Shown one piece after another: positions 1 to 23,279 of a stretch of DNA of 23,279 nucleotides (within the stretch, counting starts at the first letter, position 1; every line of letters starts with the position of its first letter). The translations under genes were made by a program, and so were the position numbers. The stretch is from a virus (Duplodnaviria; Heunggongvirae; Uroviricota; Caudoviricetes). The DNA lies in IMG/VR virus record IMGVR_UViG_3300029816_000015, positions 1 to 23,279 of that record; one strand, given 5' to 3'. The notes under the pieces were generated by a model. It was not told where the DNA came from and did no database searches. It worked only from the letters and a program-made list of their open reading frames with translations.

Positions 1-2383
<2,383 letters not shown>

Positions 2384-2384
<1 letters not shown>

Positions 2385-2623: not shown

Positions 2624-2625
2624 GT

Positions 2626-3024: not shown

Positions 3025-3096
3025 TGTGATTCCTTAATACTTTAAAAGAAACAAAAAAGGGGAAGACCTTTTAAAGTCTCCCCCTTATAGGATTTA

Positions 3097-3543: not shown

Positions 3544-3558
3544 TCCAATTTACCTCTA

Positions 3559-6815: not shown

Positions 6816-6836
6816 TCATAACCCTCCTTAAGAATA

Positions 6837-7940
6837 TTAGTCTTTGGCGTCAGCACGAACATCTACCAGCAACTGAGGACGAGTACAGTATGGCAGCATG
6901 TAAGAGTGAGCTTCAAAGTCAATACCTTCGTCACGGTCTTTTTCGTATTCGAATACGTACAGTTCCTGACCAAGTGTGTTTGCATAACCCATCTTAGGAC
7001 ATGGACCATATGCAACTTCGAAGATGTTGTTAGCTTCACCAAGCATAGATACGTTAGGGAAAGCATGACCAACACCAACAGTTGCTGCTGCACCATCAAT
7101 GCTCACCAGAGTGTGAACCTTACCACGCTTGTCTTTGAACTTACCGTTGTACTGGACAAACTTAACACCACCGTAGTAGAAAGTGTTCATATGAGCCTGA
7201 ACGCCGTCAGTACCACCAGTTCTCAGAGAACCAGTAATCTGTTGCCAAGCCAGTGGGGTCTGCTGTGCAAGATAAGCGTCACGAATCTTAGGATGCTTAA
7301 CCAGCTTGCTGAAGAATACACGGTCAACAACTACGTGAATTTCTTCACCGTTGATTACAGTGCCAGTCTTAGCTTCGTCTTCCATGTGCATACGCAGTTC
7401 TTCAATAGAAGCGTCGATGTCAGCATTAGGGTTGTCAAGGTCGAAGTAAACAGTCTTCTTCTCAACGTCGAACTGCTTGTACAGGTCAGCGTACAGCGTA
7501 CCACGAGCATCAACAACTTTACCCTTCAGAGCTTGCATAAACAGGAACTCACGAGTAATATCGAACTTGGTACGAATCTTCATCAGCTTCTTAGCACGTA
7601 CTACAGCTTCAGTAGTCAGTTCGTTTGCAGTGCCTGGCTGACGTACACCCTGAATTTCATCAGGAGTGATGCTTTCAACTTCTTTGAAGTACATCATTGG
7701 GAAGCTGATTTGACGGACACGCTCAGGTGCGCTAGTCTCTGCTTTACGGCTATCACGGTCTACCGCATCAAGCAAGCTAACATCCCAATCAGTCAAGTCC
7801 ATAAGGAAAGTAGTTTGGGTGATTGGTGCTGAACGGAATAGACCTAAGTTGGAAATATACCCATAAGTATTTGGGATAGACTGGACTTCACCAGTCAGGT
7901 CAGCAAGGAAAAATCTGCTTTTTTCAGAATTAGTCAACAT
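6837..7940 (-). CDS. Major capsid protein
   Basis: 367 aa ORF following decoration and protease/scaffold genes (lambda-like C-D-E order); RBS GGAGAA 9 nt upstream of ATG; long antisense ORF 6906..7832 is spurious. Confidence 0.7.
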   Translation of the reverse strand: MLTNSEKSRFFLADLTGEVQSIPNTYGYISNLGLFRSAPITQTTFLMDLTDWDVSLLDAVDRDSRKAETSAPERVRQISFPMMYFKEVESITPDEIQGVRQPGTANELTTEAVVRAKKLMKIRTKFDITREFLFMQALKGKVVDARGTLYADLYKQFDVEKKTVYFDLDNPNADIDASIEELRMHMEDEAKTGTVINGEEIHVVVDRVFFSKLVKHPKIRDAYLAQQTPLAWQQITGSLRTGGTDGVQAHMNTFYYGGVKFVQYNGKFKDKRGKVHTLVSIDGAAATVGVGHAFPNVSMLGEANNIFEVAYGPCPKMGYANTLGQELYVFEYEKDRDEGIDFEAHSYMLPYCTRPQLLVDVRADAKD

Positions 7941-7973
7941 TGTAAAATTCTCCAGAATGTCTTATTATTGTTA

Positions 7974-8351
7974 TTACAGGCCAGTTGGTACGAAATCAAT
8001 ACCTTTAGCAGCCAGAGCTGTCTTGACTGCATCAGCATCAACACCTGATTCAAGAGTAAGCAGGTCTTTTAGTTCTGCGTCACGGTAAATACCAACCACT
8101 TTCAACTGACCGTGGTAAGATAGTTGCAGGTCTGCATAAAAGTTAACGATACATACAGAATCAGCCTGAGCTTCTTCTCCTGCTGCAACTTTAGTACCAT
8201 CTGCTTTCAGGACTTCACCTACACGGTATTCTGTTGAAGCAACTGGGGTGTACTCTTTACGAGAGTGGCCTGTTGGGGTAACCTGTTCCCAAAGAATGAT
8301 ATCATTCAGAGGTTCTCTTTTACCTAGCTTAGTAAAACCTTCATATGCCAT
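7974..8351 (-). CDS. Head decoration protein (putative)
   Basis: 125 aa ORF between the protease/scaffold and major capsid genes; call from position and size. Confidence 0.5.
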   Translation of the reverse strand: MAYEGFTKLGKREPLNDIILWEQVTPTGHSRKEYTPVASTEYRVGEVLKADGTKVAAGEEAQADSVCIVNFYADLQLSYHGQLKVVGIYRDAELKDLLTLESGVDADAVKTALAAKGIDFVPTGL

Positions 8352-8362
8352 TATTGTGTTCC

Positions 8363-9709: not shown

Positions 9710-9720
9710 TTTTACTCACC

Positions 9721-10053
9721 CTATTTGTTTAAATCTACAGAGACTGAAGAGATAACATAGATACCTTCTTCAGCGAAGAATTGAGGTTTGCTAAGAGCAC
9801 CAGTTGCCACGCATTTATCGTTAGCATCCCACAAGCTATAGTGTGAGACCGTTGCAGAAGCTGGAACAGTAATGCTAACTGTGTCTTCTGAGGCAATTAA
9901 GCCATTATCCGGTTCAGAAAAATAAATAGCCACTGGCTGAGTAACCTTATTTGCTGTAGGGTCTGCCGTTGGGTCTACATTGTGTAAAATAATAGTCGTT
10001 GGGGTTAGCGTGGCGAGGATTTTATTCTTACCATCAATAGTTAATGTTCCCAT
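9721..10053 (-). CDS. Hypothetical protein (head module)
   Basis: 110 aa ORF between portal and protease genes; no recognisable motif. Confidence 0.45.
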   Translation of the reverse strand: MGTLTIDGKNKILATLTPTTIILHNVDPTADPTANKVTQPVAIYFSEPDNGLIASEDTVSITVPASATVSHYSLWDANDKCVATGALSKPQFFAEEGIYVISSVSVDLNK

Positions 10054-10553
10054 TAATTAAACCTTACTTTTTGTTTAAGGACTGTTGAATGGTTACCAGA
10101 TTCATCTACCACATTTACAATCATATCATATACTTTACCTTTGACAAGTACTTTGTAATCATTTTGTGAAAAAATGTATTCAAGTCTGTTTGTTTCTTTA
10201 TTAACTGTCATTGGAGATTGAAATGCAGTATCGAGGGTAATGAAAGCGGCTTCAATGCTATTAACATTGATACGTTTATTCTCGCAGTTATATAACTTTA
10301 CACCCAAAAGGCATGAACTGTCAAATGGAATTTTAACAATCTCACTACAATTTCCTGAAATAAACGGTTTTCCACTCATTGGTGCATCAAGTAACCTGCA
10401 AATAGTGAAAACGTCAGAGATTCCACCATCACTAACATAACCTGAAAGGCTGACCCTTGAGCCAGCCTCCACAGATAACTTGTCAGTGATGATAAGGACA
10501 CCCCTATACGAATGCACTCGTGTAGCATTTGAAATAGAGATAACTTCAGCCAT
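10053..10553 (-). CDS. Hypothetical protein (head module)
   Basis: 166 aa ORF immediately downstream of portal, 1-nt overlaps with both neighbours. Confidence 0.45.
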   Translation of the reverse strand: MAEVISISNATRVHSYRGVLIITDKLSVEAGSRVSLSGYVSDGGISDVFTICRLLDAPMSGKPFISGNCSEIVKIPFDSSCLLGVKLYNCENKRINVNSIEAAFITLDTAFQSPMTVNKETNRLEYIFSQNDYKVLVKGKVYDMIVNVVDESGNHSTVLKQKVRFN

Positions 10554-12019: not shown

Positions 12020-12035
12020 TCTTCTCACCTAGCTA

Positions 12036-13637
12036 TCAACGTCTAAGCCCCTCATATGGGTTCCCTCTCACTAAGTCTGTGTGAGCGCCCATTGATGGTG
12101 GCTTGAATAATTTAACTTCGTTAAGACTGTTGAAAGCATCACTGGTAGCATCCACTTGGTCATCTTTAGTTTTACCATCACCACAAAAGCCTTCAAGTTC
12201 TTGGAAGTAAGCTTCGTTCCAACTACCTCTCAAGACTTTTACAAGTCCAGCTTCAGAAGCAGCAGAAAACCCCGCAAATCGGGTAACTTTATCTTTATTT
12301 GTTGGTTTAGCTCTTGCTCGATAACCTTTCTCGGCAAGTTTCCTGATGAGGGATGTTGCGTAGGATTTACCAGCAGCGCCTGGGTCTTGAGGGATAAAAA
12401 TACCAGTTCGCTTACCGTCACTTTCAGCAGTCAAATTAATTTGTGTTTCGACTCCAGAGGGTCTATCTCTAAATCTTACTACATCAATGATATAATAGCA
12501 ACCGTCTTTTTTAGATTTACCCATCTTAACACCTGCTGTCCAGTCTGGATTAGGGTTAATCTCAGATGGTAAAGTTGCTGCTAAGTCCCATGCTCTGACA
12601 TCGAATACATCCTCTGGGAGTGAATCAACAATTTCACACCATTGTCTTTGCCAATAGTTTGAACCTTCTGCACGAGCCTTCCAGTTACCGAAACGAAGTC
12701 TTGCAACGTTTACAGGAGTGTTGTTTTCCAACTTACCACGATATTTAGGTTCTAAGAAGTCAAGAATTGGGTTATCATCAATCGTACCAGAGATGAATGT
12801 ATATGTTTGAGGAATCTCAAGAGGAAACATTTCGAGAATCTTGTCTCTCTCCCAATCAGAAACCATAACACCATCATTCATTACATACCAACGAATACGA
12901 CCACATTTTTCAGAGTCTGGGTAACCTTCTTCATCTAAGAATGGTTCTACCCAATCGTAAATAAAGTGGTCTCTGTCTGGGTTCATAGAAATCTTCATGT
13001 ATGAATCACCTTCAGCCCCAGAACGTAAACGAGTCTGTAGGTATGAAATCTGTGAAGCAGAGAAGTGCGTACCTTCGTCAAAGTAAATAGCTGAGTATTC
13101 AATACCCTGATGACCTTCAGCGTGCTTTTCAAGTTCTAGATAGGTAAACTTGATAGTTGCCCCAGAAGGGAATGTGATAGTCATCTTCTGCTCGTGAGGA
13201 ACCCCACCAAACTTACCAAATAGTTTCTTTGCAGCAGGCCACAAACCACCTTGTAACTGTGTTGTATTTCGACGGAAATAGACAGCATTATAGTTAGGGT
13301 CATCAATAAACCTTAAAGAGTCCATTAACAATGCAGCCGTCTTACCAGCACCAGCAGCACCACCATAGAGAACCAAGTCGGCATTAGTATTTAAAAAGAC
13401 CTCTTGAGAACCCGGCTGAGGGGCTACATAGTTCTTATCAGTCATTAATTTGAAGATAAGTCTAACTTGGTCTGGTGTGTATCTTAATAAAGTCAGAATT
13501 TGAGTTGGAAGGAATTTAGAGGGGTCTTTACCGAATGATTTGATAATTTCTTTTACTTCATCAGAAAGCCCCAACTCTCCAGCTAGGACTTTCCTAACAT
13601 CTTCCACTCGCTTCTGCTTAACAGCATTTAAGTCCAT
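12036..13637 (-). CDS. Terminase large subunit
   Basis: Walker A motif (LYGGAAGAGKTAALL) in N-terminal ATPase region; about 533 aa; ATG at 13635-13637 with RBS GGAGGTG preferred over the TTG start at 13652 in the ORF track. Confidence 0.85.
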   Translation of the reverse strand: MDLNAVKQKRVEDVRKVLAGELGLSDEVKEIIKSFGKDPSKFLPTQILTLLRYTPDQVRLIFKLMTDKNYVAPQPGSQEVFLNTNADLVLYGGAAGAGKTAALLMDSLRFIDDPNYNAVYFRRNTTQLQGGLWPAAKKLFGKFGGVPHEQKMTITFPSGATIKFTYLELEKHAEGHQGIEYSAIYFDEGTHFSASQISYLQTRLRSGAEGDSYMKISMNPDRDHFIYDWVEPFLDEEGYPDSEKCGRIRWYVMNDGVMVSDWERDKILEMFPLEIPQTYTFISGTIDDNPILDFLEPKYRGKLENNTPVNVARLRFGNWKARAEGSNYWQRQWCEIVDSLPEDVFDVRAWDLAATLPSEINPNPDWTAGVKMGKSKKDGCYYIIDVVRFRDRPSGVETQINLTAESDGKRTGIFIPQDPGAAGKSYATSLIRKLAEKGYRARAKPTNKDKVTRFAGFSAASEAGLVKVLRGSWNEAYFQELEGFCGDGKTKDDQVDATSDAFNSLNEVKLFKPPSMGAHTDLVRGNPYEGLRR

Positions 13638-13658
13638 TAAGCACCTCCGCAAATAGAA

Positions 13659-14044: not shown

Positions 14045-14084
14045 ATTATTATTATTTTAATTGAGAGAGAGTAAAATAACTTGG

Positions 14085-14157
14085 AGAATCCGAAGGGACT
14101 CGAACCCTTATAGACCTGTTTTGCAGACAGGCACATAGCCATTTCTGTCACGGATTC
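14085..14157 (-). tRNA. tRNA-Cys (anticodon GCA)
   Basis: Hand-folded: acceptor CGGATTC pairing, T arm AAGGG-TTCGAGT-CCCTT, anticodon loop CTGCAAA, encoded CCA at 14082-14084, U73. Confidence 0.7.
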
Positions 14158-14164
14158 AAATTGG

Positions 14165-14254
14165 AGGAAGATACCAGACTTGAACTGGTACACCGATTTC
14201 TCAGCTACTGGCAGTTTAGCAAACTGCTCCCTTACCTTTTAGGGTTAATCTTCC
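14165..14254 (-). tRNA. tRNA-Ser (anticodon GCT), long variable arm
   Basis: 90 nt; acceptor GGAAGAT/ATCTTCC, T arm ACCAG-TTCAAGT-CTGGT, anticodon stem GCAGT/ACTGC with loop TTGCTAA, long variable arm; CCA encoded. Confidence 0.7.
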
Positions 14255-14255
14255 A

Positions 14256-14990
14256 TTATTTCTGTAATGCGTTCTTCATTTCTGGTGTTGCAATAGTATC
14301 AATTACACCAGTTTTACAAGCATCATCAAACCAGTCTGGTAAGATACCTGCTAAGAACCCATTGATATTCGTTTTAAGGTACTCTGCAATAAGGGCAGCT
14401 TCTTCTTCAATCATCTGCACAACTTCATCTGCATAAGCTGTAATCTTCGAGATACCTTCATTAATCTTACTAACAGCTTGGTTAGCTAAATCAGAAACAG
14501 TATCAAGACCTTTATCAATAGCATCTTGTAAGTCACTTAATACATCATTAACACCGTCTAGTGCACTGTTAATTGTGTCAATAGCTTTTTGACCATACTC
14601 TGTAGCAACACCCATAATACCACTAAATGGTGTACAACCAACTTGCTCTCCTGCTGCACCCATAACATTGGAGTAGCCTTTTGCTACCTGCATACGTGAG
14701 GAAAACTCATCAATAGACTTTTGACCATAATCTGTCAATGTCTTAGTGGTTGATGTAGTGCTTGTCAGACTCGTTGTAAAGCTATTAAGCAGAGCTGTTG
14801 TAAGTCCAGCAGCAATGAGCTTATCCTTCATTGTAGGGTCTGTTACAGAGCTAATAGAGCTTACAAGTGATGTAGAGGCAGCCACGGTTCCACCTAGAAC
14901 TGCTGCACCAGTAATAAGGGGATTAGAAAACCCTCTACCGGTTTTTAAGAGATTAAAAATCTCCTTACCTTGTTCTGTCATCTCTTTCAT
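14256..14990 (-). CDS. Hypothetical protein embedded in the tRNA array
   Basis: 245 aa from ATG 14988-14990 with RBS AAGGTG 5 nt upstream; the ORF-track 5' extension to 15053 overlaps tRNA-Phe and is rejected. Ala/Thr/Ser-rich, helical C-terminal half. Confidence 0.55.
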   Translation of the reverse strand: MKEMTEQGKEIFNLLKTGRGFSNPLITGAAVLGGTVAASTSLVSSISSVTDPTMKDKLIAAGLTTALLNSFTTSLTSTTSTTKTLTDYGQKSIDEFSSRMQVAKGYSNVMGAAGEQVGCTPFSGIMGVATEYGQKAIDTINSALDGVNDVLSDLQDAIDKGLDTVSDLANQAVSKINEGISKITAYADEVVQMIEEEAALIAEYLKTNINGFLAGILPDWFDDACKTGVIDTIATPEMKNALQK

Positions 14991-15008
14991 TAAGCACCTT
15001 TGAAATTG

Positions 15009-15083
15009 GTAGTCCAGTGGGATTTGAACCCTCTTCTCATGTTTTTCAGACACGCGCTTTAACCATATAAGCTACTTGGACTA
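15009..15083 (-). tRNA. tRNA-Phe (anticodon GAA)
   Basis: Acceptor TAGTCCA/TGGACTA; T loop TTCAAAT; anticodon stem-loop CGTGT-CTGAAAA-ACATG; D stem weak. Confidence 0.55.
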
Positions 15084-15091
15084 TAAATTGG

Positions 15092-15164
15092 GGTGACCTA
15101 CGGGATTTGAACCCGTATAGACCATGTTCACAGCATGGGTCATTACCTTTTATGATAAGGCCAC
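15092..15164 (-). tRNA. tRNA-His (anticodon GTG)
   Basis: Acceptor GTGGCCT/AGGTCAC, D stem TCAT/ATGA, anticodon stem CCATG/CATGG with loop CTGTGAA, T arm ACGGG-TTCAAAT-CCCGT, CCA encoded. Confidence 0.7.
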
Positions 15165-15198
15165 ATTTAAGGACTCTCGTAAGAACCCTTAGAAGTGG

Positions 15199-15271
15199 CA
15201 GCGGCATAAGGATTTGAACCTTAATAAGACAGCTTCAGAGACTGTTGCATTGCCAGTTATGCTATACCGCT
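15199..15271 (-). tRNA. tRNA-Gln (anticodon CTG)
   Basis: Acceptor AGCGGTA/TGCCGCT, D stem GCAT/ATGC, anticodon loop CTCTGAA, T arm TAAGG-TTCAAAT-CCTTA, CCA encoded. Confidence 0.65.
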
Positions 15272-15279
15272 AAATTTGG

Positions 15280-15355
15280 TACTCCATATCGGATTCGAAC
15301 CGATACATAACACAGATTTTAAGTCTGGCCTCTCTGCCAATTGGAGTAATGGAGC
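15280..15355 (-). tRNA. tRNA with Leu anticodon TAA but short variable arm (76 nt)
   Basis: Acceptor GCTCCAT/ATGGAGT, U8, D stem CTC/GAG, anticodon stem CAGA/TCTG with loop CTTAAAA, 7-8 nt variable loop, T arm ATCGG-TTCGAAT-CCGAT, A73, CCA encoded. Confidence 0.5.
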
Positions 15356-15360
15356 ATTGG

Positions 15361-15433
15361 CGGGGGATGTTGGAATTGAACCAACTTCTTCGATTTCAAA
15401 GACCGAGGTTTTAACCTTGTAAACTAATCCCCT
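15361..15433 (-). tRNA. tRNA-Gln (anticodon TTG)
   Basis: Acceptor with A1-C72 mismatch, T arm GTTGG-TTCAATT-CCAAC, anticodon stem TCGGT/ATCGA with loop CTTTGAA, CCA encoded. Confidence 0.6.
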
Positions 15434-15441
15434 TTAAATCT

Positions 15442-15999
15442 TTACTTTCTTAGTGGATGAATAAAGAATGCCAACATAACTCTTTCCCTTGAGAATGCTC
15501 TTTCTTCTGGGACAACACTTTTAAGTTTCCACCCAACATAAATTCTCCAGTAGAATTGCTTACCAAAGACTTTAATTGACGGGATAAAAGCGAATAATCC
15601 CCAAGCATTACTGTTCCACATTAGGAGATAACCTGTCTGATTATCTTCAGGGTTAGAACTTACATTGATATTACCTTTCCACTTAGTAACATCTTTTACA
15701 TCTCTTCCTAACACATGGTAAGAGAAGTTATAAGCTTTGTTTCTCCAGAGCCAACCAACTCTCTGCATATAGACACCAAGCTTACCAATCTTTCTAATCT
15801 TAGCCCATCGTTCGACATGACCTTTATCACCATCAATTGGGTTGTCATATGTCTCCATCCATCTGAATCCAAAAGGGAGATGTCCTTTCTTCTCACTGTA
15901 GAATGGAACTACGAAAGGTGCTAAGATAACTGCTAAGATTGCTGCAAATGGCTCTAACAAAGCTAAGAAAATCCATGAAGCATACTTCAAATATCTCAT
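15442..15999 (-). CDS. Hypothetical membrane protein embedded in tRNA array
   Basis: 185 aa ORF with RBS AAGAGG upstream of ATG; N-terminal hydrophobic helix (WIFLALLEPFAAILAVILAPFVVPF), Trp/Lys-rich remainder; flanked tightly by tRNA genes. Confidence 0.55.
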   Translation of the reverse strand: MRYLKYASWIFLALLEPFAAILAVILAPFVVPFYSEKKGHLPFGFRWMETYDNPIDGDKGHVERWAKIRKIGKLGVYMQRVGWLWRNKAYNFSYHVLGRDVKDVTKWKGNINVSSNPEDNQTGYLLMWNSNAWGLFAFIPSIKVFGKQFYWRIYVGWKLKSVVPEERAFSRERVMLAFFIHPLRK

Positions 16000-16021
16000 C
16001 TAAATAGCCTCTTTAAATTGG

Positions 16022-16094
16022 CGCAGGATAAGGGATTCGAACCCCTATTAACAGCTTCGTAGACTGTTGCTCTATCCATTTGAACTAATCCTGC
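16022..16094 (-). tRNA. tRNA-Arg (anticodon ACG)
   Basis: Acceptor GCAGGAT/ATCCTGC, T arm AGGGG-TTCGAAT-CCCTT, anticodon stem ACAGT/GCTGT with loop CTACGAA, CCA encoded. Confidence 0.65.
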
Positions 16095-16102
16095 AAAACT
16101 GG

Positions 16103-16177
16103 TGTTCCAAGACGGATTCGAACCGTCACTAATACAAGGTTTGAGCTTGCATCCTCTGCCAATTGGGATACTGGAAC
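16103..16177 (-). tRNA. tRNA with Leu anticodon CAA but short variable arm (75 nt)
   Basis: Acceptor GTTCCAG/TTGGAAC, U8, D stem TCC/GGA, anticodon stem GCAAG/CTTGT with loop CTCAAAC, 6-nt variable loop, T arm GACGG-TTCGAAT-CCGTC, A73, CCA encoded; length fixed by adjacent tRNA-Val. Confidence 0.55.
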
Positions 16178-16181
16178 ATGG

Positions 16182-16254
16182 TACTCACTAAAGGACTTGA
16201 ACCTTTTTTCTTCATCTTGTAAGGGTGATGTTTTACCATATAAACTAAGCGAGT
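16182..16254 (-). tRNA. tRNA-Val (anticodon TAC)
   Basis: Acceptor ACTCGCT/AGTGAGT, T arm AAAGG-TTCAAGT-CCTTT, anticodon loop CTTACAA, CCA encoded. Confidence 0.65.
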
Positions 16255-16353
16255 ATGAAAGAGGTCTGAAGTTGTGCCGCTAACTCAACTCCGTGGAATT
16301 TGTTATGGTCTTCAGTTGACTCAAAGCGGTCTTTCACTTGACCTCTAAATTGG

Positions 16354-16425
16354 TGCTCCCACAAGGATTCGAACCCTGATAAGTTGCTTACAAGGCAACC
16401 GTAATAGCCAATTATACGATAGGAG
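16354..16425 (-). tRNA. tRNA-Thr (anticodon TGT)
   Basis: Acceptor GCTCCTA/TGGGAGC, T arm CAGGG-TTCGAAT-CCTTG, perfect anticodon stem GTTGC/GCAAC with loop CTTGTAA, CCA encoded. Confidence 0.65.
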
Positions 16426-16436
16426 CATTAATTTGG

Positions 16437-16508
16437 AGCATCCAGAGGGAATCGAACCCTCAACCTCAGTTTGGAAGACTGTAATTTTCCCGTTTAAACT
16501 ATGGATGC
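16437..16508 (-). tRNA. tRNA-Gly (anticodon TCC)
   Basis: Acceptor GCATCCA/TGGATGC perfect, T arm GAGGG-TTCGATT-CCCTC, anticodon loop CTTCCAA, CCA encoded. Confidence 0.7.
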
Positions 16509-16517
16509 ACTAATTGG

Positions 16518-16590
16518 TGGAGTCACTGAGAATTGAACTCAGTTCCCAAGTTTGCAAAACTCGAATTTTAACCATATAAACTATGACCCC
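16518..16590 (-). tRNA. tRNA-Ala (anticodon TGC)
   Basis: Acceptor GGGGTCA/TGACTCC with G3-U70, T arm CTGAG-TTCAATT-CTCAG, anticodon loop TTTGCAA, CCA encoded. Confidence 0.7.
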
Positions 16591-16599
16591 ATTGCTTGG

Positions 16600-16672
16600 T
16601 ACAGGTGGAGGGAATTGAACCCATCGTCTTACTGATTAAGAGTCAGCCGCATAACCATTTTGCTACACCTGC
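16600..16672 (-). tRNA. tRNA-Lys (anticodon CTT)
   Basis: Acceptor GCAGGTG/CACCTGT, D stem GCA/TGC, anticodon stem CTGA/TCAG with loop CTCTTAA, T loop TTCAATT with only 3 clean T-stem pairs, CCA encoded. Confidence 0.55.
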
Positions 16673-16682
16673 ATTAATTTGG

Positions 16683-16757
16683 TAGGAGACAAGGGATTCG
16701 AACCCTCAAACACCAACTTCTAAGGATGGTAGGTTTACCAATTACCGTCAATCTCCC
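16683..16757 (-). tRNA. tRNA with Leu anticodon TAG but short variable arm (75 nt)
   Basis: Acceptor GGGAGAT/GTCTCCT (two G-U pairs), anticodon stem CCATC/GTTGG with loop CTTAGAA, T arm GAGGG-TTCGAAT-CCCTT, A73, CCA encoded; two extra nt between acceptor and D stem. Confidence 0.45.
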
Positions 16758-17011
16758 ATTAAATCTTTTTAGAGAACTTCTAAGAACCTAAGCAACAAGG
16801 TTCCACAACAAGCTGTAATAACCTTAGAAGCCCTCTAAAAAGACCTAATTTGGTCTTTGCATAGTCTTGTTTAATCCGGTGACTAGAACCTTTGGAGAGC
16901 TTGATATATCTCTTCTCCGTGACACCTACTAGGTGCTTTATCAGTGTACGACAATACACGAGGGATAAACCGAAAATGCGAGCAAGCATGGACGGTGTAA
17001 ATCTTATTAGG

Positions 17012-17099
17012 CGGTAAGTAAAGGAGTCGAACCCTCACCGTATCTCTACAGTGGCAACAGTTTTCAAGACTGTTTGGCTGCCATTAGCCGCTACCTACC
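17012..17099 (-). tRNA. tRNA-Ser (anticodon TGA), long variable arm
   Basis: 88 nt; acceptor GGTAGGT/ACTTACC, 3-bp D stem, perfect anticodon stem ACAGT/ACTGT with loop CTTGAAA, long variable arm, T loop TTCGACT. Confidence 0.6.
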
Positions 17100-17115
17100 C
17101 CTAATAAGATTTTGG

Positions 17116-17195
17116 CATGGGACGGAGGAGTTGAACCCCTTTGAAACGGTTTTGGAGGCCGTTGCTCATGCCTTAGAGTCTTAACATCGTCCCAT
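17116..17195 (-). tRNA. tRNA-Trp (anticodon CCA), enlarged D region
   Basis: 80 nt; acceptor ATGGGAC/GTCCCAT perfect, anticodon stem ACGG/CCGT with loop CTCCAAA, T loop TTCAACT, CCA encoded; D region about 7 nt longer than standard. Confidence 0.5.
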
Positions 17196-17340
17196 ACTGT
17201 AATTCGAAGCTTACCGTATTTTCACAACACTGTAAAGCCCCTTCTCAGATTATTTACATGTTCTGGAAAACATGAGATACAGACCACCTCCTTACACGGA
17301 GACCCGATAAGGTCGTCTAAGCAATCTGCTAACTATTTGG

Positions 17341-17414
17341 CACACCCTACAGGATTCGAACCTGTAACTCAATGATTAGAAGTCATTTGCTCTGTCCAGT
17401 TGAACTAAGGGTGC
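17341..17414 (-). tRNA. tRNA-Arg (anticodon TCT)
   Basis: Acceptor GCACCCT/AGGGTGT, T arm ACAGG-TTCGAAT-CCTGT, perfect anticodon stem AATGA/TCATT with loop CTTCTAA, CCA encoded. Confidence 0.7.
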
Positions 17415-17617
17415 ATTAATCTTTAAAAACTCTCTTAGAAAGCCCTTAAAGATGCCCACCTTATTAATCATACCGTGGGCTAGTACGCCAAATTCTTTGA
17501 TGAGGGATTGGAAGACCTCACTGGTGTTTAGCCTATCAAGCTACTGCCAGAAAAACATTGTCGTTTGCATTTATTTTAAATTTGCAAAATAGACGCTACG
17601 CAACGAAAACTAAGGTT

Positions 17618-17646
17618 ACTATAAAGTGGTCACATCTAAATGTCAA
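17618..17646 (-). promoter_or_regulatory. Sigma70-like promoter inside the tRNA array (minus sense TTGACA-N17-TATAGT)
   Basis: -35 TTGACA at 17646..17641 and -10 TATAGT at 17623..17618 with a 17-bp spacer; predicted start near 17610, about 195 nt upstream of tRNA-Arg(TCT). Confidence 0.5.
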
Positions 17647-17664
17647 CAACTTTATTGAAATTGG

Positions 17665-17737
17665 TACTGGTAGGTGGAATCGAACCACCGATGTTCCCTT
17701 ATCAGGGGAGTGTTATAACCTTCTTAACTATACCAGC
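17665..17737 (-). tRNA. tRNA-Ile (anticodon GAT)
   Basis: Acceptor GCTGGTA/TACCAGT, T arm GGTGG-TTCGATT-CCACC, anticodon loop CTGATAA, CCA encoded. Confidence 0.7.
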
Positions 17738-17741
17738 TTGG

Positions 17742-17815
17742 AGGTTCAGATGGGATTCGAACCCACATTCATAGGGCTTATGAGACCCTTGCATTACCTT
17801 ATCTGCGACTGAACC
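17742..17815 (-). tRNA. tRNA with anticodon CAT (Met elongator or Ile2-type)
   Basis: Acceptor GGTTCAG/CTGAACC perfect, D stem GCA/TGC, anticodon stem AGGGT/GCCCT with loop CTCATAA, T arm GTGGG-TTCGAAT-CCCAT, CCA encoded. Confidence 0.65.
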
Positions 17816-17822
17816 ATATTGG

Positions 17823-17895
17823 TAGAAGTGGAGGGATTCGAACCCATCGCCTGTCAGATTAAAAGTCTGCCGCATCACCATTCTGCTACACTTCC
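17823..17895 (-). tRNA. tRNA-Lys (anticodon TTT)
   Basis: Acceptor GGAAGTG/CACTTCT, anticodon stem CAGA/TCTG with loop CTTTTAA, T loop TTCGAAT with GGG/CCC core as in the other Lys tRNA, CCA encoded. Confidence 0.55.
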
Positions 17896-17901
17896 ATTAA
17901 A

Positions 17902-18040
17902 TTATCTTTGTAGATAAGCTACCCAGACTTGCTTAAGGTCTGTAGCGATGTGCCTTGTTGGGTTTAAATCTAGAATTTACCCTTTCACCCTTTGTGGTCG
18001 CATACTCACAGGTAAGCTTAATAACTTATCTACAAAGATA
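17902..18040 (-). repeat. Long hairpin: 17-bp perfect inverted repeat (TTATCTTTGTAGATAAG / CTTATCTACAAAGATAA) enclosing about 105 nt
   Basis: Arms at 17902-17918 and 18024-18040 are exact reverse complements; interior holds smaller hairpins including CCAGAC-N8-GGTCTG (17922-17943); no tRNA fold found. Confidence 0.5.
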
Positions 18041-18044
18041 ATTA

Positions 18045-18176
18045 CCAGACCGTTGTTTATCATCTTAAGTGCTACCATTACACCAACTCGACATCTGCCG
18101 AGTGAAGGAATCGAACCTTCGCCTTTTCTTTACCGGAGAAATAGATTGTTTAAGTTTTGCTGTAAACGGTCTTCTG
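18045..18176 (-). ncRNA. Candidate Y-RNA-like ncRNA (YrlA-type) with permuted tRNA-like module
   Basis: Closing helix from minus-sense CAGAAGACCGUU (5') and AACGGUCUGG (3'); interior in minus sense has T arm GAAGG-UUCGAUU-CCUUC, then hairpin ACUCGGC-AGAU-GUCGAGU, then D-arm-like UGGUGUAAUGGUAGCAC. No anticodon arm. Confidence 0.4.
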
Positions 18177-18188
18177 TAAATTTGTTGA

Positions 18189-18265
18189 GCCAGACCAAGT
18201 TTTAAATTTTCAAAATTAAATTGGCTTTAAATTTTAAGTAACTTGCTGAATTTGGTCTTCTGCTC
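18189..18265 (-). ncRNA. Bulged-helix hairpin element, same closing helix as 18045..18176, AT-rich interior
   Basis: Arms GCCAGACCAAG (18189-18199) and TTGGTCTTCTGC (18252-18263) pair as AGACC/GGUCU plus a 3-nt bulge plus GG/CC; loop about 50 nt without tRNA-like arms. Confidence 0.3.
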
Positions 18266-18277
18266 CTTTAAAGAATA

Positions 18278-18314
18278 CTCGTAAGAACCCTTTAAGGGAG
18301 GGGCTAAATAGCCC
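18278..18314 (-). promoter_or_regulatory. Conserved spacer motif (minus sense CTTAAAGGGTTCTTACGAG) next to small hairpin GGGCTA-AA-TAGCCC
   Basis: Near-identical to the motif at 15174-15195 (minus sense CTTCTAAGGGTTCTTACGAGAG); weaker copies at 16770-16790 and 17428-17450. Function unknown. Confidence 0.3.
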
Positions 18315-18326
18315 TCTCAAAATTGG

Positions 18327-18400
18327 CGGTTACGATGAGACTTGAACTCACATCATCTCCCGTGACAGGGGAGTATTTTATCCAGTTAAACTACATAACC
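18327..18400 (-). tRNA. tRNA-Asp (anticodon GTC)
   Basis: Acceptor GGTTATG/CGTAACC, T arm GTGAG-TTCAAGT-CTCAT, perfect anticodon stem CTCCC/GGGAG with loop CTGTCAC, CCA encoded. Confidence 0.65.
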
Positions 18401-18409
18401 TTTATTTGG

Positions 18410-18494
18410 TGTGCCGTGTAGGAGTCGAACCTACCGAGTCTCAATGACAAGGGATTTACAGTCCCCACCGCTACCATCTACGGGATAACGACAC
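18410..18494 (-). tRNA. tRNA-Tyr (anticodon GTA), long variable arm
   Basis: 85 nt; acceptor GTGTCGT/ACGGCAC, D stem CCG/CGG, anticodon stem GGGGA/TCCCT with loop CTGTAAA, long variable arm, T arm GTAGG-TTCGACT-CCTAC, CCA encoded. Confidence 0.65.
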
Positions 18495-18506
18495 ATTTAA
18501 ATTTGG

Positions 18507-18580
18507 CGGTTAGTCAGGGATTCGAACCCTGTGCCATTCGCTTAACAGGCGACCGCACATACCTTATGTGCTTCCTAACC
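18507..18580 (-). tRNA. tRNA-Asn (anticodon GTT)
   Basis: D stem GCAC/GTGC perfect, anticodon stem GTCGC/GCGAA with loop CTGTTAA, T arm CAGGG-TTCGAAT-CCCTG, CCA encoded. Confidence 0.65.
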
Positions 18581-18590
18581 TTAATATATT

Positions 18591-18655
18591 GCCAGACCGT
18601 GTTTTTTTTTCTTTTATCCGCAAAAAGTAGTTTATTGCTGCATACGGTCTTCTGC
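18591..18655 (-). ncRNA. Bulged-helix hairpin element (third copy)
   Basis: Arms GCCAGACCGT (18591-18600) and ACGGTCTTCTGC (18644-18655); 7-bp helix plus 3-nt bulge plus G-C pairs; 43-nt loop with a poly-T run on plus. Confidence 0.3.
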
Positions 18656-18663
18656 AAAATTGG

Positions 18664-18737
18664 AGGCGGGTGCAGGAGTCGAACCTGCCGATGCCATGCT
18701 AATGAGACATGTGAGACGCCCTTTCTCTATACCCGCA
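18664..18737 (-). tRNA. tRNA with anticodon CAT (second copy; Met, fMet or Ile2-type)
   Basis: Acceptor TGCGGGT/ACCCGCC with 1:72 mismatch, T arm GCAGG-TTCGACT-CCTGC, anticodon stem CATGT/GCATG with loop CTCATTA (U at position 37), CCA encoded. Confidence 0.5.
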
Positions 18738-18748
18738 ATTCTTAATGA

Positions 18749-18821
18749 CCAGACCAAATCTCTTCTTTGTCCGATTTAGCTTCAGATGAATAAGATTAAG
18801 TTTGCTGTAATTGGTCTTCTG
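18749..18821 (-). ncRNA. Bulged-helix hairpin element (fourth copy)
   Basis: Arms CCAGACCAAA (18749-18758) and TTGGTCTTCTG (18811-18821) enclosing an AT-rich 50-nt loop. Confidence 0.3.
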
Positions 18822-18831
18822 TCAAAACTGG

Positions 18832-18906
18832 CGTTCCAGAAGGGATTTTAACCCTCAAATATCCACTTTGAAAGAGTGGTGACTATACCATTTTGTCTAC
18901 TGGAAC
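18832..18906 (-). tRNA. tRNA-Glu (anticodon TTC)
   Basis: Acceptor GTTCCAG/CTGGAAC perfect, D stem GAC/GTC, perfect anticodon stem CCACT/AGTGG with loop CTTTCAA, unusual T loop TTAAAAT, CCA encoded. Confidence 0.6.
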
Positions 18907-18916
18907 ATTAATTTGG

Positions 18917-18990
18917 TCTCTGTTGGAGGACTTGAACCTCCGGCCTTACCGCCCCAAACGGAACACTCTACCAAGCTGAGCTAAACAGAG
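18917..18990 (-). tRNA. tRNA-Pro (anticodon TGG); first gene of the array in transcription order
   Basis: Acceptor CTCTGTT/AACAGAG perfect, T arm GGAGG-TTCAAGT-CCTCC, anticodon loop TTTGGGG, CCA encoded. Confidence 0.65.
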
Positions 18991-19155: not shown

Positions 19156-19521
19156 TTACCAGATATAACGGTCAACCATTACTGCTTTGAGCATTACGCT
19201 GATTGGGTCAAACTTCTCACCACCAAGCAGAGCTTTTAAAGTGGCTGGAGAGAACCCTGATACCATCGCTACACCATTATCCTTAACAGATACTTCGCAA
19301 GTACCATTACGGTTTGCTAAGTACCAGAATACTAGTTGTGGCATTTCGTATCCAGCTTTTTTGTACTTACTCTGAATTGCTTCAAAGTTTGTACGACCAT
19401 TTGCACCATCAACCTGATTAAACTCCATATCAGAGAAGATAATAAGCTTACTTGGCATATCTTTCTGAGTCAAGTTGTTTCTCTTACCTATCTCAAGAAT
19501 ACGGTCAAAGCTGCTTGTAAG
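19156..19521 (-). CDS. C-terminal part of Ro60/Rsr-like (or DUF2828-like) vWA-domain protein, out of frame with N-terminal part
   Basis: Frame open from just after a TAA at 19522-19524; encodes LTSSFDRILEIGKRNNLTQKDMPSKLIIFSDMEFN... (second half of a vWA fold). ORF track entry 19156..19473 begins at an internal TTG. Confidence 0.55.
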   Translation of the reverse strand, partial: LTSSFDRILEIGKRNNLTQKDMPSKLIIFSDMEFNQVDGANGRTNFEAIQSKYKKAGYEMPQLVFWYLANRNGTCEVSVKDNGVAMVSGFSPATLKALLGGEKFDPISVMLKAVMVDRYIW

Positions 19522-20570
19522 TTAGTTGAACCATATTCAACATGACGCATTACCTGACGATGACGGTTTCGTAAATCACCACTCAGTTCAATGAAATGAG
19601 GGTTTGTTGAATAGACCATTAACTCATCTTTAAAGCAACCTGTATTGCGTTCTGCTACATACAAGGCAAGTGATACACCAATATCAAGGGCAGTGATTGA
19701 ACCAAGATTCACCCAAGACATTGAGCTTGAAACATCAGTCATACACAAGATGTTCTCACCTTCTGCCATCCAGTTTGGTAGTGCTTTCCACTGCTCATTA
19801 GCAACATCTGCATTACCATGCTTGATAGACTTAATCACATCGTATGGGTAGACAGCACCAGCATTAATCTTAGCCTCACCTTTTGATAAGGACTCAATGT
19901 AAGCTTTGTAGCGTTCTCCATCTTTGCGGTTAAAGAGCTTTTGGTAACGTGCAGCAGCAAGAGACGGAATCTTACTGTAATCAATCTTACCAAACTCATT
20001 AGCAGAGATTTTTTGCTCAACCGTATCAGACAGTGCAGATAACAGTGTGCGGTATTCTTTCTCGCTTAAGTTTGCAAACTTACAGAAACGTTTTACAAAC
20101 TGTTTGTGTCGTGGTTTTACTCGTGGTAACCACTTGGCTGCTAAACCTGCTGTCTCAGGGTCTAGTAATGCTGCTTCTAAATGCTTAAAGGCATCTGTCT
20201 CAAAACGAGTACCTACGAAGATTTTGAAGTCATCAAAACGACCAAGTTCTGCAATCTTATCCATAATACGAAGAAACTGTGTAGGCTCTAAAACTTTATC
20301 TTCGATTGCTTGAAGTAAAACAGTTCTGAAGGCTTTACGCTCACCCATACCTTCTCGTACATCTCGCATGTGAAGCAAAATACGAACTGCAACATCAACA
20401 TCCTCACGCAAAGCTTTGTAGAACAAGTCTGGTAAGATTTCTACATTGCTACGGCTTGAACCAGCAGCTTTGTAAAAGTCCACAAGAGCAGACATTGATG
20501 AAGTATGGTTTACAGCACCATTTTCAGTTCGACCTGCATGAAGGTGCGCATGTTTAAATAATTCGCTCAT
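19488..20570 (-). CDS. N-terminal part of Ro60/Rsr-like (or DUF2828-like) protein: helical domain plus start of vWA domain
   Basis: 360 aa; RBS AAGAGAG upstream of ATG; helical N-terminal about 280 aa, then DxSxS motif (CMTDVSSSMSW) typical of a vWA MIDAS; ends at TAG 19488-19490 inside the vWA domain. Confidence 0.6.
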   Translation of the reverse strand: MSELFKHAHLHAGRTENGAVNHTSSMSALVDFYKAAGSSRSNVEILPDLFYKALREDVDVAVRILLHMRDVREGMGERKAFRTVLLQAIEDKVLEPTQFLRIMDKIAELGRFDDFKIFVGTRFETDAFKHLEAALLDPETAGLAAKWLPRVKPRHKQFVKRFCKFANLSEKEYRTLLSALSDTVEQKISANEFGKIDYSKIPSLAAARYQKLFNRKDGERYKAYIESLSKGEAKINAGAVYPYDVIKSIKHGNADVANEQWKALPNWMAEGENILCMTDVSSSMSWVNLGSITALDIGVSLALYVAERNTGCFKDELMVYSTNPHFIELSGDLRNRHRQVMRHVEYGSTNLQAALTVFLR

Positions 20571-21272: not shown

Positions 21273-21434
21273 ATGAGAAAATCAAACAACCCGAAGAAAG
21301 GTAAAAATACCAATCACTGTAAGGAATCAAAAAGGGTAGAGTTACTCTACTATTCATCCTCTGAAATTGGTCTGTACCTGTTCTTTCAAAATTACAGAAG
21401 ACAAGAGGATTATCTATGTGTAGTTCCCAATTAG
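21273..21434 (+). CDS. Small basic hypothetical protein
   Basis: 53 aa from ATG 21273 with strong RBS AAAGGAGA 5 nt upstream (ORF track starts at an upstream TTG, 21252). Confidence 0.45.
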   Translation: MRKSNNPKKGKNTNHCKESKRVELLYYSSSEIGLYLFFQNYRRQEDYLCVVPN

Positions 21435-21661
21435 AAATCGCAGATATTATAGATTTATATAAGACTGCAAAGAGTCATGGCTATATAACCTCAATTGGAA
21501 AGAATAGTCACTACGATGCTTTGACTGGAATGTATTTCAGGGCAATGGCTCAATCTAGTGAACAACACTTAATGGTTTCTTCCAGTGAGTTTACTTCGTT
21601 TCTCTATTGCAGCAAAATCATAAATCGCAGGAGAACTGAAAATGTTAACAGTAAGTTTTAA
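21416..21661 (+). CDS. Small hypothetical protein
   Basis: 81 aa ORF with RBS AGAGGA upstream; overlaps both neighbours by about 20 nt. Confidence 0.4.
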   Translation: MCSSQLEIADIIDLYKTAKSHGYITSIGKNSHYDALTGMYFRAMAQSSEQHLMVSSSEFTSFLYCSKIINRRRTENVNSKF

Positions 21662-22232
21662 TTATAATAGTGATGGCTCTGTATCAATTAATTCACCATA
21701 TGCAAATGACCTATTGAAAGCGCTAGTTAATCAGTGTGATAGAGGTCTTCACTATGTCCCAAATTCTTTCAAGCAGAAGACTATTGCCAATAACCTGATG
21801 CGTGTGACGGTTACGACATCAAACCCAAACTATGACATTGATAGTGAAAGTCCTTACTCTTTAGTGGCTCTTGGAGAATGCAGTCAATTTAAACTTGTAT
21901 GCCACGACTCAGAAACATTTCTTAAGGTATTTTCCAACCTTATTCACAATAACAAGTATGGATATGTTGATGGTAGTGTTAACTTCTATCCAGCAAACTA
22001 TACCTGTCTATTGATTGATAATATGAGAAACAGCAAGCAAGAGCCTACAGAAATTTCATTTGATGTGAACTCTAGTCCAGACGCAGAAACAAGTAATAAC
22101 TTCGATATGAGTTACGCGCTATCACTCAGCAAGAAATCCGAGTTCATTGATTATGTCAATGGATTTGGTTTTAAGTTTGACGAGAGCATGAATCTCAAAA
22201 AACTTAAGAACCTACTTAAGACCAAAGCTTAA
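21642..22232 (+). CDS. Hypothetical protein
   Basis: 196 aa ORF with RBS AGGAGA 8 nt upstream of ATG; followed by a terminator hairpin; no motif recognised. Confidence 0.6.
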   Translation: MLTVSFNYNSDGSVSINSPYANDLLKALVNQCDRGLHYVPNSFKQKTIANNLMRVTVTTSNPNYDIDSESPYSLVALGECSQFKLVCHDSETFLKVFSNLIHNNKYGYVDGSVNFYPANYTCLLIDNMRNSKQEPTEISFDVNSSPDAETSNNFDMSYALSLSKKSEFIDYVNGFGFKFDESMNLKKLKNLLKTKA

Positions 22233-22240
22233 GTATAAAC

Positions 22241-22262
22241 AGGGGCTGATGCCCCTTTATCT
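22241..22262 (+). terminator. Rho-independent terminator (AGGGGC-TGAT-GCCCCT followed by T-rich tail)
   Basis: 6-bp GC-rich stem with 4-nt loop then TTTATCTGTTT, immediately after the stop at 22230-22232. Confidence 0.6.
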
Positions 22263-22279
22263 GTTTATAAGGATATTTA

Positions 22280-22651
22280 ATGAAGGCTAAGAGTGCAAAA
22301 GACTTTTATTGCTTCCTACAATCCTATATCCACTCCGTGGAGAATGGTGAAAGATACAATCTTAACGATGTTATTGCATCACCTTTAACATGGAGAATGA
22401 GTAAATGGCCTGAAGAGGATATTACACCAACTGCCGAACAACCCACCTATAACCCAGAAATTAAACTCCCAGATTCAGATAAGTTACTATACCCAATGTT
22501 CCACATTGTCGGGCTTGGTACGTTTATCATGGATATCCAGTATGTAATTGGTAAGGGTTATAAAGTTGAAGGTATTGTTGTTAGTGATGTGTCTCCACAA
22601 CATAAAGGCTATTTTAGATTAAACGCACGTTTAGAGGCTAAAAAGAAATGA
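22280..22651 (+). CDS. Hypothetical protein; paralog of the N-terminal domain of the next gene
   Basis: 123 aa, RBS AAGGA upstream; shares spaced identities with the next ORF (KAK..DF...NG.RY, SxWPEEDI/SYWPEADI, D.LLY, F.MD.QY.I). Confidence 0.6.
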   Translation: MKAKSAKDFYCFLQSYIHSVENGERYNLNDVIASPLTWRMSKWPEEDITPTAEQPTYNPEIKLPDSDKLLYPMFHIVGLGTFIMDIQYVIGKGYKVEGIVVSDVSPQHKGYFRLNARLEAKKK

Positions 22652-23279
22652 TTAAAGCAAAGACTTACCCAGACTTCAAAGAATTTGTAAGGGGTTTCAT
22701 TGCAAATGTAAAGGCTGGTAAGAGATATGATTTTAGAACATATCAAGAAGCTATTTTACCACTTACCTATAGTTCATATTGGCCTGAAGCTGATATCGCA
22801 GAAGTTGAGAAGTTTGACTACAAACCAGACTACAAAGTACCTTTTAGTGATGATTTGCTTTACAGCATCGGTGCTCAAAGGAGAACTTCTGACTTCTTCA
22901 TGGATTTACAATATGCAATTATCAATGGTAAAGACGTTGATACAGTGTATTGTGAATGGTTGGCAAGAGTTAAGCCGTTCTCAATGTTGAATGCTAAGTT
23001 GAAGGATGCCATTAAGCCACCAGTAATTACTCAGCAACCGACAAACCAAACAGTCAATGAAGGTGGAGCACTTACCCTAAGTGTTCTCGCAACTAATGCC
23101 ACTGGGTATCAATGGAAGAAGGATGGCGAGAATATCTCCAGTGCCACATCTGCAACCTATACAAAACAATCTGTAGTACCTTCTGACGCTGGTTCATACA
23201 CTTGTGTTGTGACTGGTGCTGGTGGTTCTGTTACTTCTAACCCTGCAACTATCACGGTAAAGGCTTTGCCAGTTATCAC
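22648..23279 (+). CDS. Hypothetical protein with C-terminal Ig-like domain (partial, continues beyond window)
   Basis: ATG at 22648 overlaps the previous stop (ATGA); frame open to the window end (at least 210 codons); N-terminal about 125 aa paralogous to the previous gene; then PVITQQPTNQTVNEGGALTLSVLATNATGYQWKKDGENISSATSATYTKQSVVPSDAGSYTCVVTGAGGSVTSNPATITV. Absent from the ORF track because it has no stop. Confidence 0.6.
   Translation, partial: MIKAKTYPDFKEFVRGFIANVKAGKRYDFRTYQEAILPLTYSSYWPEADIAEVEKFDYKPDYKVPFSDDLLYSIGAQRRTSDFFMDLQYAIINGKDVDTVYCEWLARVKPFSMLNAKLKDAIKPPVITQQPTNQTVNEGGALTLSVLATNATGYQWKKDGENISSATSATYTKQSVVPSDAGSYTCVVTGAGGSVTSNPATITVKALPVI

Follow-up and report, generated by a model that had tools for sequence, protein, structure and literature searches.

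The closest described systems to the locus considered here are the capsid decoration proteins of the Escherichia phage Bas63 (JohannRWettstein) and the Shigella phage Sf14, which are named Hex-Dec or 'Hoc-like', the Bas63 protein (9NCF chain S) having been deposited as 'Immunoglobulin-like domain protein'. In the T=9 head, Hex-Dec binds centrally on the 60 pentamer-proximal hexamers, is absent from the 20 hexamers at the facet centres and carries one to four flexible immunoglobulin-like (Ig) domains that project outward (PMC12609058, PMC11821841). In Sf14 the capsid-binding domain (CapBD) comprises residues 1-118, and its Arg79 and Arg107 form salt bridges to Asp221 of the capsid protein (PMC11821841). 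A pair of genes related to Hex-Dec was identified at the end of a 23,279-nucleotide stretch of viral DNA (positions 1 to 23,279 of the IMG/VR record IMGVR_UViG_3300029816_000015; the whole stretch is hereafter referred to as the window). The first open reading frame (ORF) of the pair, ORF A, encodes a short protein and the second, ORF B, a longer one that is cut by the window end. The pair is read here as Hex-Dec (ORF B) together with an old tandem duplicate of the CapBD only (ORF A), which would act off the virion as a non-essential accessory of head decoration; the probability of this reading, taken as a whole, is put at roughly 0.55. The elements on which the analysis turns are the following.

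22280..22651, plus strand: ORF A, with an ATG start, 123 aa and no Ig domain; a stand-alone paralog of the Hex-Dec CapBD, known in relatives as Felix O1 gp37, VpaE1 ORF40c, SUSP1 agp126 and phrog_4463.
22648 to the window end, plus strand: ORF B, with an ATG start and 210 stop-free codons; the gene is cut by the window end.
22648..22651, plus strand: ATGA overlap between the start codon of ORF B and the TGA stop codon of ORF A.
22648..23016, plus strand: residues 1-123 of ORF B, the CapBD with Arg79 and Arg107; two of the 123 residues differ from Bas63 9NCF_S.
23017..23262, plus strand: residues 124-205 of ORF B, the first Ig-like (I-set/Ig_3) domain as predicted with Pfam.
23263..23279, plus strand: linker (ALPVI) opening the second Ig repeat of ORF B; the last letters of the window, which ends with the residues ..KALPVI.
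6837..7940, minus strand: major capsid protein (phrog_29), the binding partner of the CapBD; the Asp221 codon is at 7278-7280.

As judged by sequence comparison, ORF B is almost certainly the same protein as Bas63 Hex-Dec, Sf14 gp20 and Felix O1 gp36. It aligns from its first residue with 9NCF_S (E 1e-220) and with the Sf14 gp20 chain (9C2D_S and chain S of 9C3A; E 5e-154), and it matches the family phrog_3995 (E 4.5e-122). Both R79 and R107 are present and were found to be fixed across 28 unique orthologs, and the capsid protein encoded in the window matches 9NCF_A (E 6.6e-248) and carries D221 (..KIRD221AYL..). Given the near-identical solved virions and the match of the capsid protein to 9NCF_A, ORF B would be expected to decorate a T=9 capsid at the 60 pentamer-proximal hexamers. 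The Felix O1 ortholog, gp36, has been detected in purified virions with 44% peptide coverage.

An earlier note on this DNA, made from its letters alone, had described the 123-residue protein and the N-terminal ~125 residues of ORF B as paralogs, the second running on into a canonical Ig domain, and had thought of a virion-decoration locus. The pairwise alignment that it called for was performed and is significant (BLASTP; 36% identity and 55% positives over 121 residues, E 3e-17), and residues 124-204 of ORF B score above the Pfam gathering thresholds for Ig_3 (48.2 bits, cutoff 30; 1.6e-12), Ig_2 (1.5e-10) and I-set (2.9e-7). The decoration function proved right for ORF B, an ortholog of the solved capsid decoration chains 9NCF_S and 9C2D_S, and the N-terminal module shared by the two ORFs is the CapBD of Hex-Dec. 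The role of ORF B is therefore not an open question, its structure and its placement on the capsid having been published in 2025 (PMC12609058, PMC11821841). The identity of the short paralog was left aside in the earlier note.

The first Ig domain of ORF B aligns to all four Ig repeats of 9NCF_S and, since the window ends in the linker to a second repeat, the full protein has at least two such domains. The orthologs measure 210/211, 294, 377 or 461 aa, in steps of one Ig repeat that correspond to one to four Ig domains. The label 'tail protein' or 'major tail protein' given to ORF B is wrong, because it stems only from similarity in the Ig domain, to which the matches to phrog_158, 853 and 3575 are confined, and because the solved orthologs sit on the capsid. 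Assignment to the T4 Hoc family was also rejected, as the PHROG 'Hoc-like' matches cover only the Ig region (residues 126-206); ORF B is an analog of Hoc and not a member of its family.

ORF A is very probably a functional paralog of the CapBD that is maintained by selection. In addition to the direct alignment of the two proteins, ORF A matches phrog_3995 (4e-16) and ORF B matches phrog_4463 (1e-15), and among 177,635 distinct PDB sequences ORF A matches only 9NCF_S (E 1e-13) and 9C2D_S (E 1.5e-11), both of them orthologs of ORF B. Sequence and fold homology to the CapBD family was observed across the full length of the domain. The features of a Hex-Dec-type decoration protein, namely Arg79 and Arg107 and the displayed Ig domains, were found to be missing from ORF A, which ends after 123 residues and shows neither a Pfam match nor a motif. 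The intact full-length orthologs are all 122-124 aa long. A word-indexed protein search with ORF A returned close orthologs of ORF A only, and an exhaustive search of 1.84 billion representative proteins with hidden Markov models recovered just 12 clusters at 50% identity, so that the CapBD family is narrow. In the papers searched, the ORF A family was found described nowhere and its relation to the Hex-Dec CapBD was not found discussed.

Searches with tblastn placed ORF A in 253 phage records of the genera Felixounavirus, Mooglevirus and Suspvirus, nearly all of which contain two matching places, one for ORF A and one for Hex-Dec. The reading frame of ORF A is intact in ~230 of the 253 records, and the overlap with ORF B is an ATGA in 29 of 31 loci and 8 nt long in both Suspvirus loci. 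The same order is retained in a divergent 87-kb metagenomic phage (a 195-aa gene, ORF A of 122 aa, Hex-Dec of 298 aa and a lysozyme), the copies of which are 45% (ORF A) and 58% (ORF B) identical to those of the window. In a neighbour-joining tree, the A clade and the B clade are each monophyletic. Over the 31 loci, ORF A has a ratio of nonsynonymous to synonymous substitution rates (dN/dS) of 0.12, with dS up to 1.4, and the ratio is 0.045 in the CapBD of Hex-Dec and again 0.12 in the first Ig domain (Ig1); ORF A thus evolves ~3 times faster than the CapBD of Hex-Dec. Such values do not bear out the suggestion, made when the locus was first noticed, that it may be a diversifying one.

The control elements around the gene pair are listed below.

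22241..22256, on both strands by scan: G+C-rich hairpin with a T-run, terminator-like, between a 196-aa gene and ORF A.
22269..22273, plus strand: Shine-Dalgarno-like AAGGA of ORF A, 6 nt before the start codon, as read from the sequence.
22634..22637, plus strand: Shine-Dalgarno GAGG of ORF B, within the 3' end of ORF A and 10 nt before the ATG.

No match to ORF A was obtained in ~20 of the 253 records. The four such phages examined (mio, Tf, REP5 and FGS030) carry a remnant of the gene in which the start codon is lost and ~220 nt are deleted, with one junction shared by all, and in which 1-nt indels are polymorphic. The remnant of this mio lineage, a natural lineage of Felixounavirus (~190 nt; locus L003:2306-2497 and loci L004, L041 and L042), still contains both the terminator hairpin and the Hex-Dec ribosome-binding site, and the sequence TTAGAGG(C/A)T is conserved at every locus examined, including those without ORF A. 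In vB_Si_CECAV_FGS030, a spurious 30-aa ORF has been annotated on the remnant.

These remnants bear on the possibility that a partial duplication left ORF A behind as a relic without function, retained only for the ribosome-binding site of Hex-Dec in its 3' end. What is left in the phages without ORF A, the 5' ~60 nt and the 3' ~110 nt including the Hex-Dec Shine-Dalgarno sequence, would fit such a view, as would the dispensability of the gene (see below). However, the frame is intact in the large majority of records across lineages with dS above 1, the dN/dS of 0.12 applies to the whole length of the gene, and truly non-functional copies decay fast, as the lost start codon, the ~220-nt deletion and the polymorphic indels demonstrate; the relic explanation is effectively refuted by the selection analysis and can be regarded as excluded. 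The arrangement at the 3' end also invites the idea of a programmed -1 frameshift on A AAA AAG, yielding an A-B fusion (CapBD-CapBD-Ig), as ORF A in the window ends with GCT AAA AAG AAA TGA and ORF B lies in the -1 frame, where no stop codon occurs from 22642 onward. Such a fusion is highly improbable and is excluded because only part of Felixounavirus conserves AAAAAG: wV8-type Felixounavirus (GCT GAA AAG), Mooglevirus (GCT AAG/AAT AAA) and Suspvirus lack the slippery run. It is the GAGG Shine-Dalgarno sequence, and not the slippery run, that stays conserved, no ORF A peptides are reported from virions, and the solved Hex-Dec chains begin at residue 1 of ORF B.

A column-wise comparison of 28 unique A and 28 unique B sequences revealed 32 columns that are invariant in both clades (DF..F, G.Y, PLT, WPE.DI, Y.P, LLY, F.MD.QY, LNA.L) and that probably define the fold. 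The two clades are separated by 28 fixed differences, including Gly78 in ORF A against Arg79 in ORF B, and the position of Arg107 is occupied by Gln or His in ORF A; both of the capsid anchors named by the Sf14 structure have therefore been lost. ORF A in addition carries an invariant hydrophobic segment, PMFHIVGLG, where Hex-Dec has a basic loop.

Published data on relatives provide information on the expression of the pair. In Felix O1, reverse transcription PCR showed that ORFs 36 and 37, the counterparts of ORF B and ORF A, peak at 60 min together with the portal, sheath and fibre genes, and that ORFs 35 and 38 on either side reach their peak at 25 min. A terminator is annotated just upstream of ORF 37. 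The hairpin listed above is the same as the one entered as a terminator in Table 2 of the Felix O1 report (PMC3185647). The pair forms its own late unit between genes peaking at 25 min in Felix O1, beyond the transfer RNA (tRNA) array and adjoining the endolysin.

ORF A is probably not a stoichiometric virion protein, a conclusion for which its absence from virions is taken from published proteome summaries. The Felix O1 virion proteome includes gp36 (Hex-Dec) and gp37 is not among its proteins; in VpaE1, liquid chromatography-tandem mass spectrometry against all ORFs of more than 50 codons identified 22 proteins, Hex-Dec being detected and the ORF A ortholog not being among them. The capsid maps of Bas63 and Sf14 show no density on the other hexamers (PMC12609058, PMC11821841), and for Sf14 this includes an asymmetric map at 4.5 A (PMC11821841). 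Bas63 has ORF A, and so do all of the listed Mooglevirus records, in which Sf14 is taken to be included.

It is against these data that a second, Ig-less decoration role has to be weighed, in which ORF A would bind the 20 facet-centre (3-fold) hexamers or be present at low occupancy. ORF A is made late together with Hex-Dec, and the Sf14 paper explains the exclusion of Hex-Dec from the 3-fold hexamers by a displacement of Asp221, the partner of R79 and R107 (PMC11821841); it is exactly these two positions that are replaced in ORF A, as would be expected for an adaptation to another hexamer geometry. In P0060 (153 aa), a distant relative with a single copy, the CapBD is followed by only a short low-complexity Lys/Ser-rich tail and no Ig array, which suggests that a CapBD with little else attached can suffice as the only copy. 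Against this role stand the empty hexamers in both cryo-electron microscopy studies, the 4.5 A asymmetric map of Sf14 among them, the lack of ORF A in reports of Felix O1 and VpaE1 virion proteomes that caught smaller or rarer proteins, and the loss of ORF A in the mio lineage without a change near the hexamer centre of the mio capsid protein. The latter, the only capsid protein of a phage without ORF A that was compared, is 99% identical to that of the window and keeps D221. A second decoration role is accordingly considered quite unlikely. Its stricter version, a genuine plug specialised for the 20 facet-centre hexamers such that the two paralogs discriminate the hexamer classes of a T=9 head, is very doubtful; replacing both arginines, mismatched to the geometry of the 3-fold hexamers, would then be an adaptive change, and the plug would have been missed since a monomer on the 3-fold axis averages out and a 14-kDa protein at 20 copies is easily overlooked in mass spectrometry.

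ORF A is dispensable, as indicated by a genetic screen and by one natural lineage without the gene. In the CRISPRi-ART screen of SUSP1, agp126 (ORF A) had a fitness value of -0.91 (p 0.74) and agp125 (Hex-Dec) one of -0.39 (p 0.72), both being classified as 'Not Fit' (PMC11879866). Compensatory changes were sought in the four phages of the mio lineage, and no lineage-specific substitution was found in their Hex-Dec CapBD.

Dispensability in the laboratory and in one natural lineage would equally suit a function of ORF A unrelated to the capsid, such as that of a protein binding a host factor, a defence decoy or a regulator of lysis timing, only the ancestral fold and the operon position having been kept. 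The loss of both anchoring arginines, the 28 fixed differences with PMFHIVGLG in place of the basic loop, the faster evolution relative to the CapBD and the location of the gene pair outside the structural module and next to the endolysin are all in line with such a function. It is nevertheless unlikely. Across genera the overlap is strictly conserved and ORF A is expressed late alongside Hex-Dec, which points to a shared process; ORF A contains no motif and no Pfam or PADLOC-type signature, though no search against PADLOC was made, and its hydrophobic stretch is no membrane segment. A membrane, holin or spanin role, for which the neighbouring endolysin and the hydrophobic LLYPMFHIVGLGTFLMDI had made ORF A a candidate, was rejected on the same ground: the segment aligns to a core strand and helix of the CapBD and includes an Asp that is invariant in the family.

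The reading preferred here, an off-virion accessory to Hex-Dec, can be laid out as follows. The CapBD of Hex-Dec would sit as a monomer at the hexamer centre, held by the salt bridges of Arg79 and Arg107 to Asp221, and would project a flexible Ig string. This string presumably serves in adhesion, aggregation or sensing of the environment, roles that have been put forward for T4 Hoc. ORF A would be an old tandem duplicate of the CapBD that kept the fold residues, lost the Ig array and had both anchoring arginines replaced; it is made late with Hex-Dec and kept by purifying selection while being dispensable. Its place of action would most likely be the infected cell, where it would transiently engage the partners of the CapBD, either Hex-Dec itself or the hexamer centres of the capsid ahead of Hex-Dec docking, instead of serving as a permanent decoration. 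A specific role as off-virion modulator or chaperone is offered as a tentative proposal.

Several considerations weigh against this reading. Most of the case for an off-virion role is built on negative data. A 14-kDa protein present at ~20 copies per virion can go unnoticed in proteomics, and icosahedral averaging would smear a monomer located on a true 3-fold axis. The CRISPRi-ART screen of SUSP1 scored the endolysin as Not Fit too (PMC11879866), and hence has false negatives. The AlphaFold2 model of ORF A is of low confidence (predicted local distance difference test, pLDDT, 59.6), and a Foldseek search gave nothing significant. Since Hex-Dec is unchanged in the phages without ORF A, an obligatory chaperone role is disfavoured, and without both arginines ORF A may no longer touch the capsid at all.

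The distribution of the CapBD in more distant phages provides insights into the origin of the pair. Where the same neighbourhood occurs in more distant relatives, only one CapBD is present, in fusion with Big_2, with Ig or with a short low-complexity tail, and no adjacent stand-alone copy of the CapBD was found. The metagenomic proteins P0057-P0061 (loci L035-L039) illustrate the range of display modules that are joined to the CapBD, namely Big_2, a single Ig domain or a Lys/Ser-rich low-complexity tail, and judging from these fusions the CapBD looks like a reusable capsid anchor. As a single fused CapBD is what the distant relatives contain, the ancestral state was presumably a fused protein. 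ORF A would then descend either from a duplicate of the CapBD alone or from a duplicate that later lost its display domains, the event predating the divergence of the Ounavirinae genera.

The variation of Hex-Dec itself was examined in the Ig array. In comparison with UAB_Phi87 (L008), dS is 0.68 in Ig1 (23017-23262), 0.125 in the CapBD and 0.04 in ORF A. The C-terminal half of Ig1 in the window (VVTGAGGSVTSN..) resembles later Ig repeats of Bas63. The excess of dS in Ig1 and the likeness to later Bas63 repeats suggest recombination between Ig repeats. Diversifying selection or a mechanism of the diversity-generating retroelement type is unsupported, dN/dS being 0.04-0.13. Thus, the variation in Hex-Dec is one of Ig repeat number (1-4) and of recombination among the repeats, with no sign of positive selection.

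As regards the genomic setting, 219 phage records match positions 21400-23279 at ~90-97% identity, almost all of them Felixounavirus, a genus that comprises Felix O1-like myophages infecting E. coli, Salmonella and Shigella, and the window can be assigned by these matches to a Felixounavirus. The other genes of the window agree with this assignment, the minus strand encoding the tape measure protein, sheath, major capsid protein, prohead protease, portal and large terminase. Beyond them, at 14082-18990 (minus strand), 26 tRNA genes with interspersed small ORFs form an array that is typical of Felix O1-like phages and includes two each of tRNA-Met, tRNA-Gln, tRNA-Lys, tRNA-Arg and tRNA-Ser and three tRNA-Leu. 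The Hex-Dec gene pair is encoded on the opposite strand, ~9 kb past the head/tail module (141-13652) and at a distance of ~15 kb from the capsid gene. The 196-aa gene upstream of the hairpin is a homolog of Felix O1 gp38, and in relatives ORF B is 294 aa long and directly followed by the endolysin.

Two other genes of the window deserve a comment. A gene for a vWA/DUF2828 'RNA-binding protein' (phrog_850; 19156..20570, minus strand) has a 1-nt deletion in a T run at ~19509 (TTTT to TTT) that splits it into ORFs of 360 and 105 aa, the protein being 471 aa long in vB_EcoM_D4 and EF202P1; the split reflects either a sequencing error in the homopolymer or a genuine pseudogene. A 125-aa ORF adjoining the capsid gene (7974..8351, minus strand) matches phrog_4146 with the label 'tail protease', which is probably misleading, as position and size suggest that it would be the beta-tulip decoration protein of Bas63 and Sf14 (Dec/gp33; Felix O1 gp57).

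The Ig-bearing ORF B adds nothing new to the structure and capsid placement published in 2025. The analysis does offer an annotation correction, in that the genes widely labelled 'tail protein' or 'hypothetical' are a head decoration protein (ORF B) and its CapBD-only paralog (ORF A). An Ig-less, anchor-less copy of the CapBD overlapping the decoration gene is kept by ~90% of the Ounavirinae. If ORF A does modulate or pre-occupy the hexamer centres, it would be, as far as is known, the first accessory factor for a Hoc-like decoration protein, and would bear on the use of Hex-Dec as a phage-display anchor in therapeutic and diagnostic phages of the Felix O1 type.

Comparison with known decoration systems places the locus as follows. 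T4 Hoc resembles Hex-Dec in being a non-essential monomer at the hexamer centre with an outward Ig string, for which adhesion, aggregation or sensing has been proposed. To our knowledge, no stand-alone paralog of the Hoc capsid-binding domain has been reported. Hoc differs from Hex-Dec in that its capsid-binding domain is C-terminal, smaller and topologically distinct, so that the domain order is reversed (PMC12609058). The Ig domain of the T5 decoration protein pb10 (5LXK, 8ZVI) matches ORF B at E 4e-11, but the capsid-binding domains of the two are unrelated in sequence and T5 has no tandem CapBD-only gene. Sf14 gp20 (9C2D/9C3A chain S) has three Ig domains and a CapBD with ~80% identity, and the upstream CapBD-only gene is not mentioned in the paper describing its structure (PMC11821841). 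Felix O1 gp37 (phrog_4463), annotated as 'hypothetical protein' and, in UniRef, as 'Tail protein', is an ortholog of ORF A with 85% identity and belongs to the same uncharacterised family. Bas63 Hex-Dec shares with ORF B the order of a CapBD followed by I-set repeats, the same neighbours, with ORF A upstream and the endolysin downstream, and the same capsid protein (PMC12609058), and has four Ig repeats where one complete repeat and the start of a second are visible in the window; ORF A, in contrast, corresponds to its CapBD only (~36% identity), with no Ig domain and without R79 and R107.

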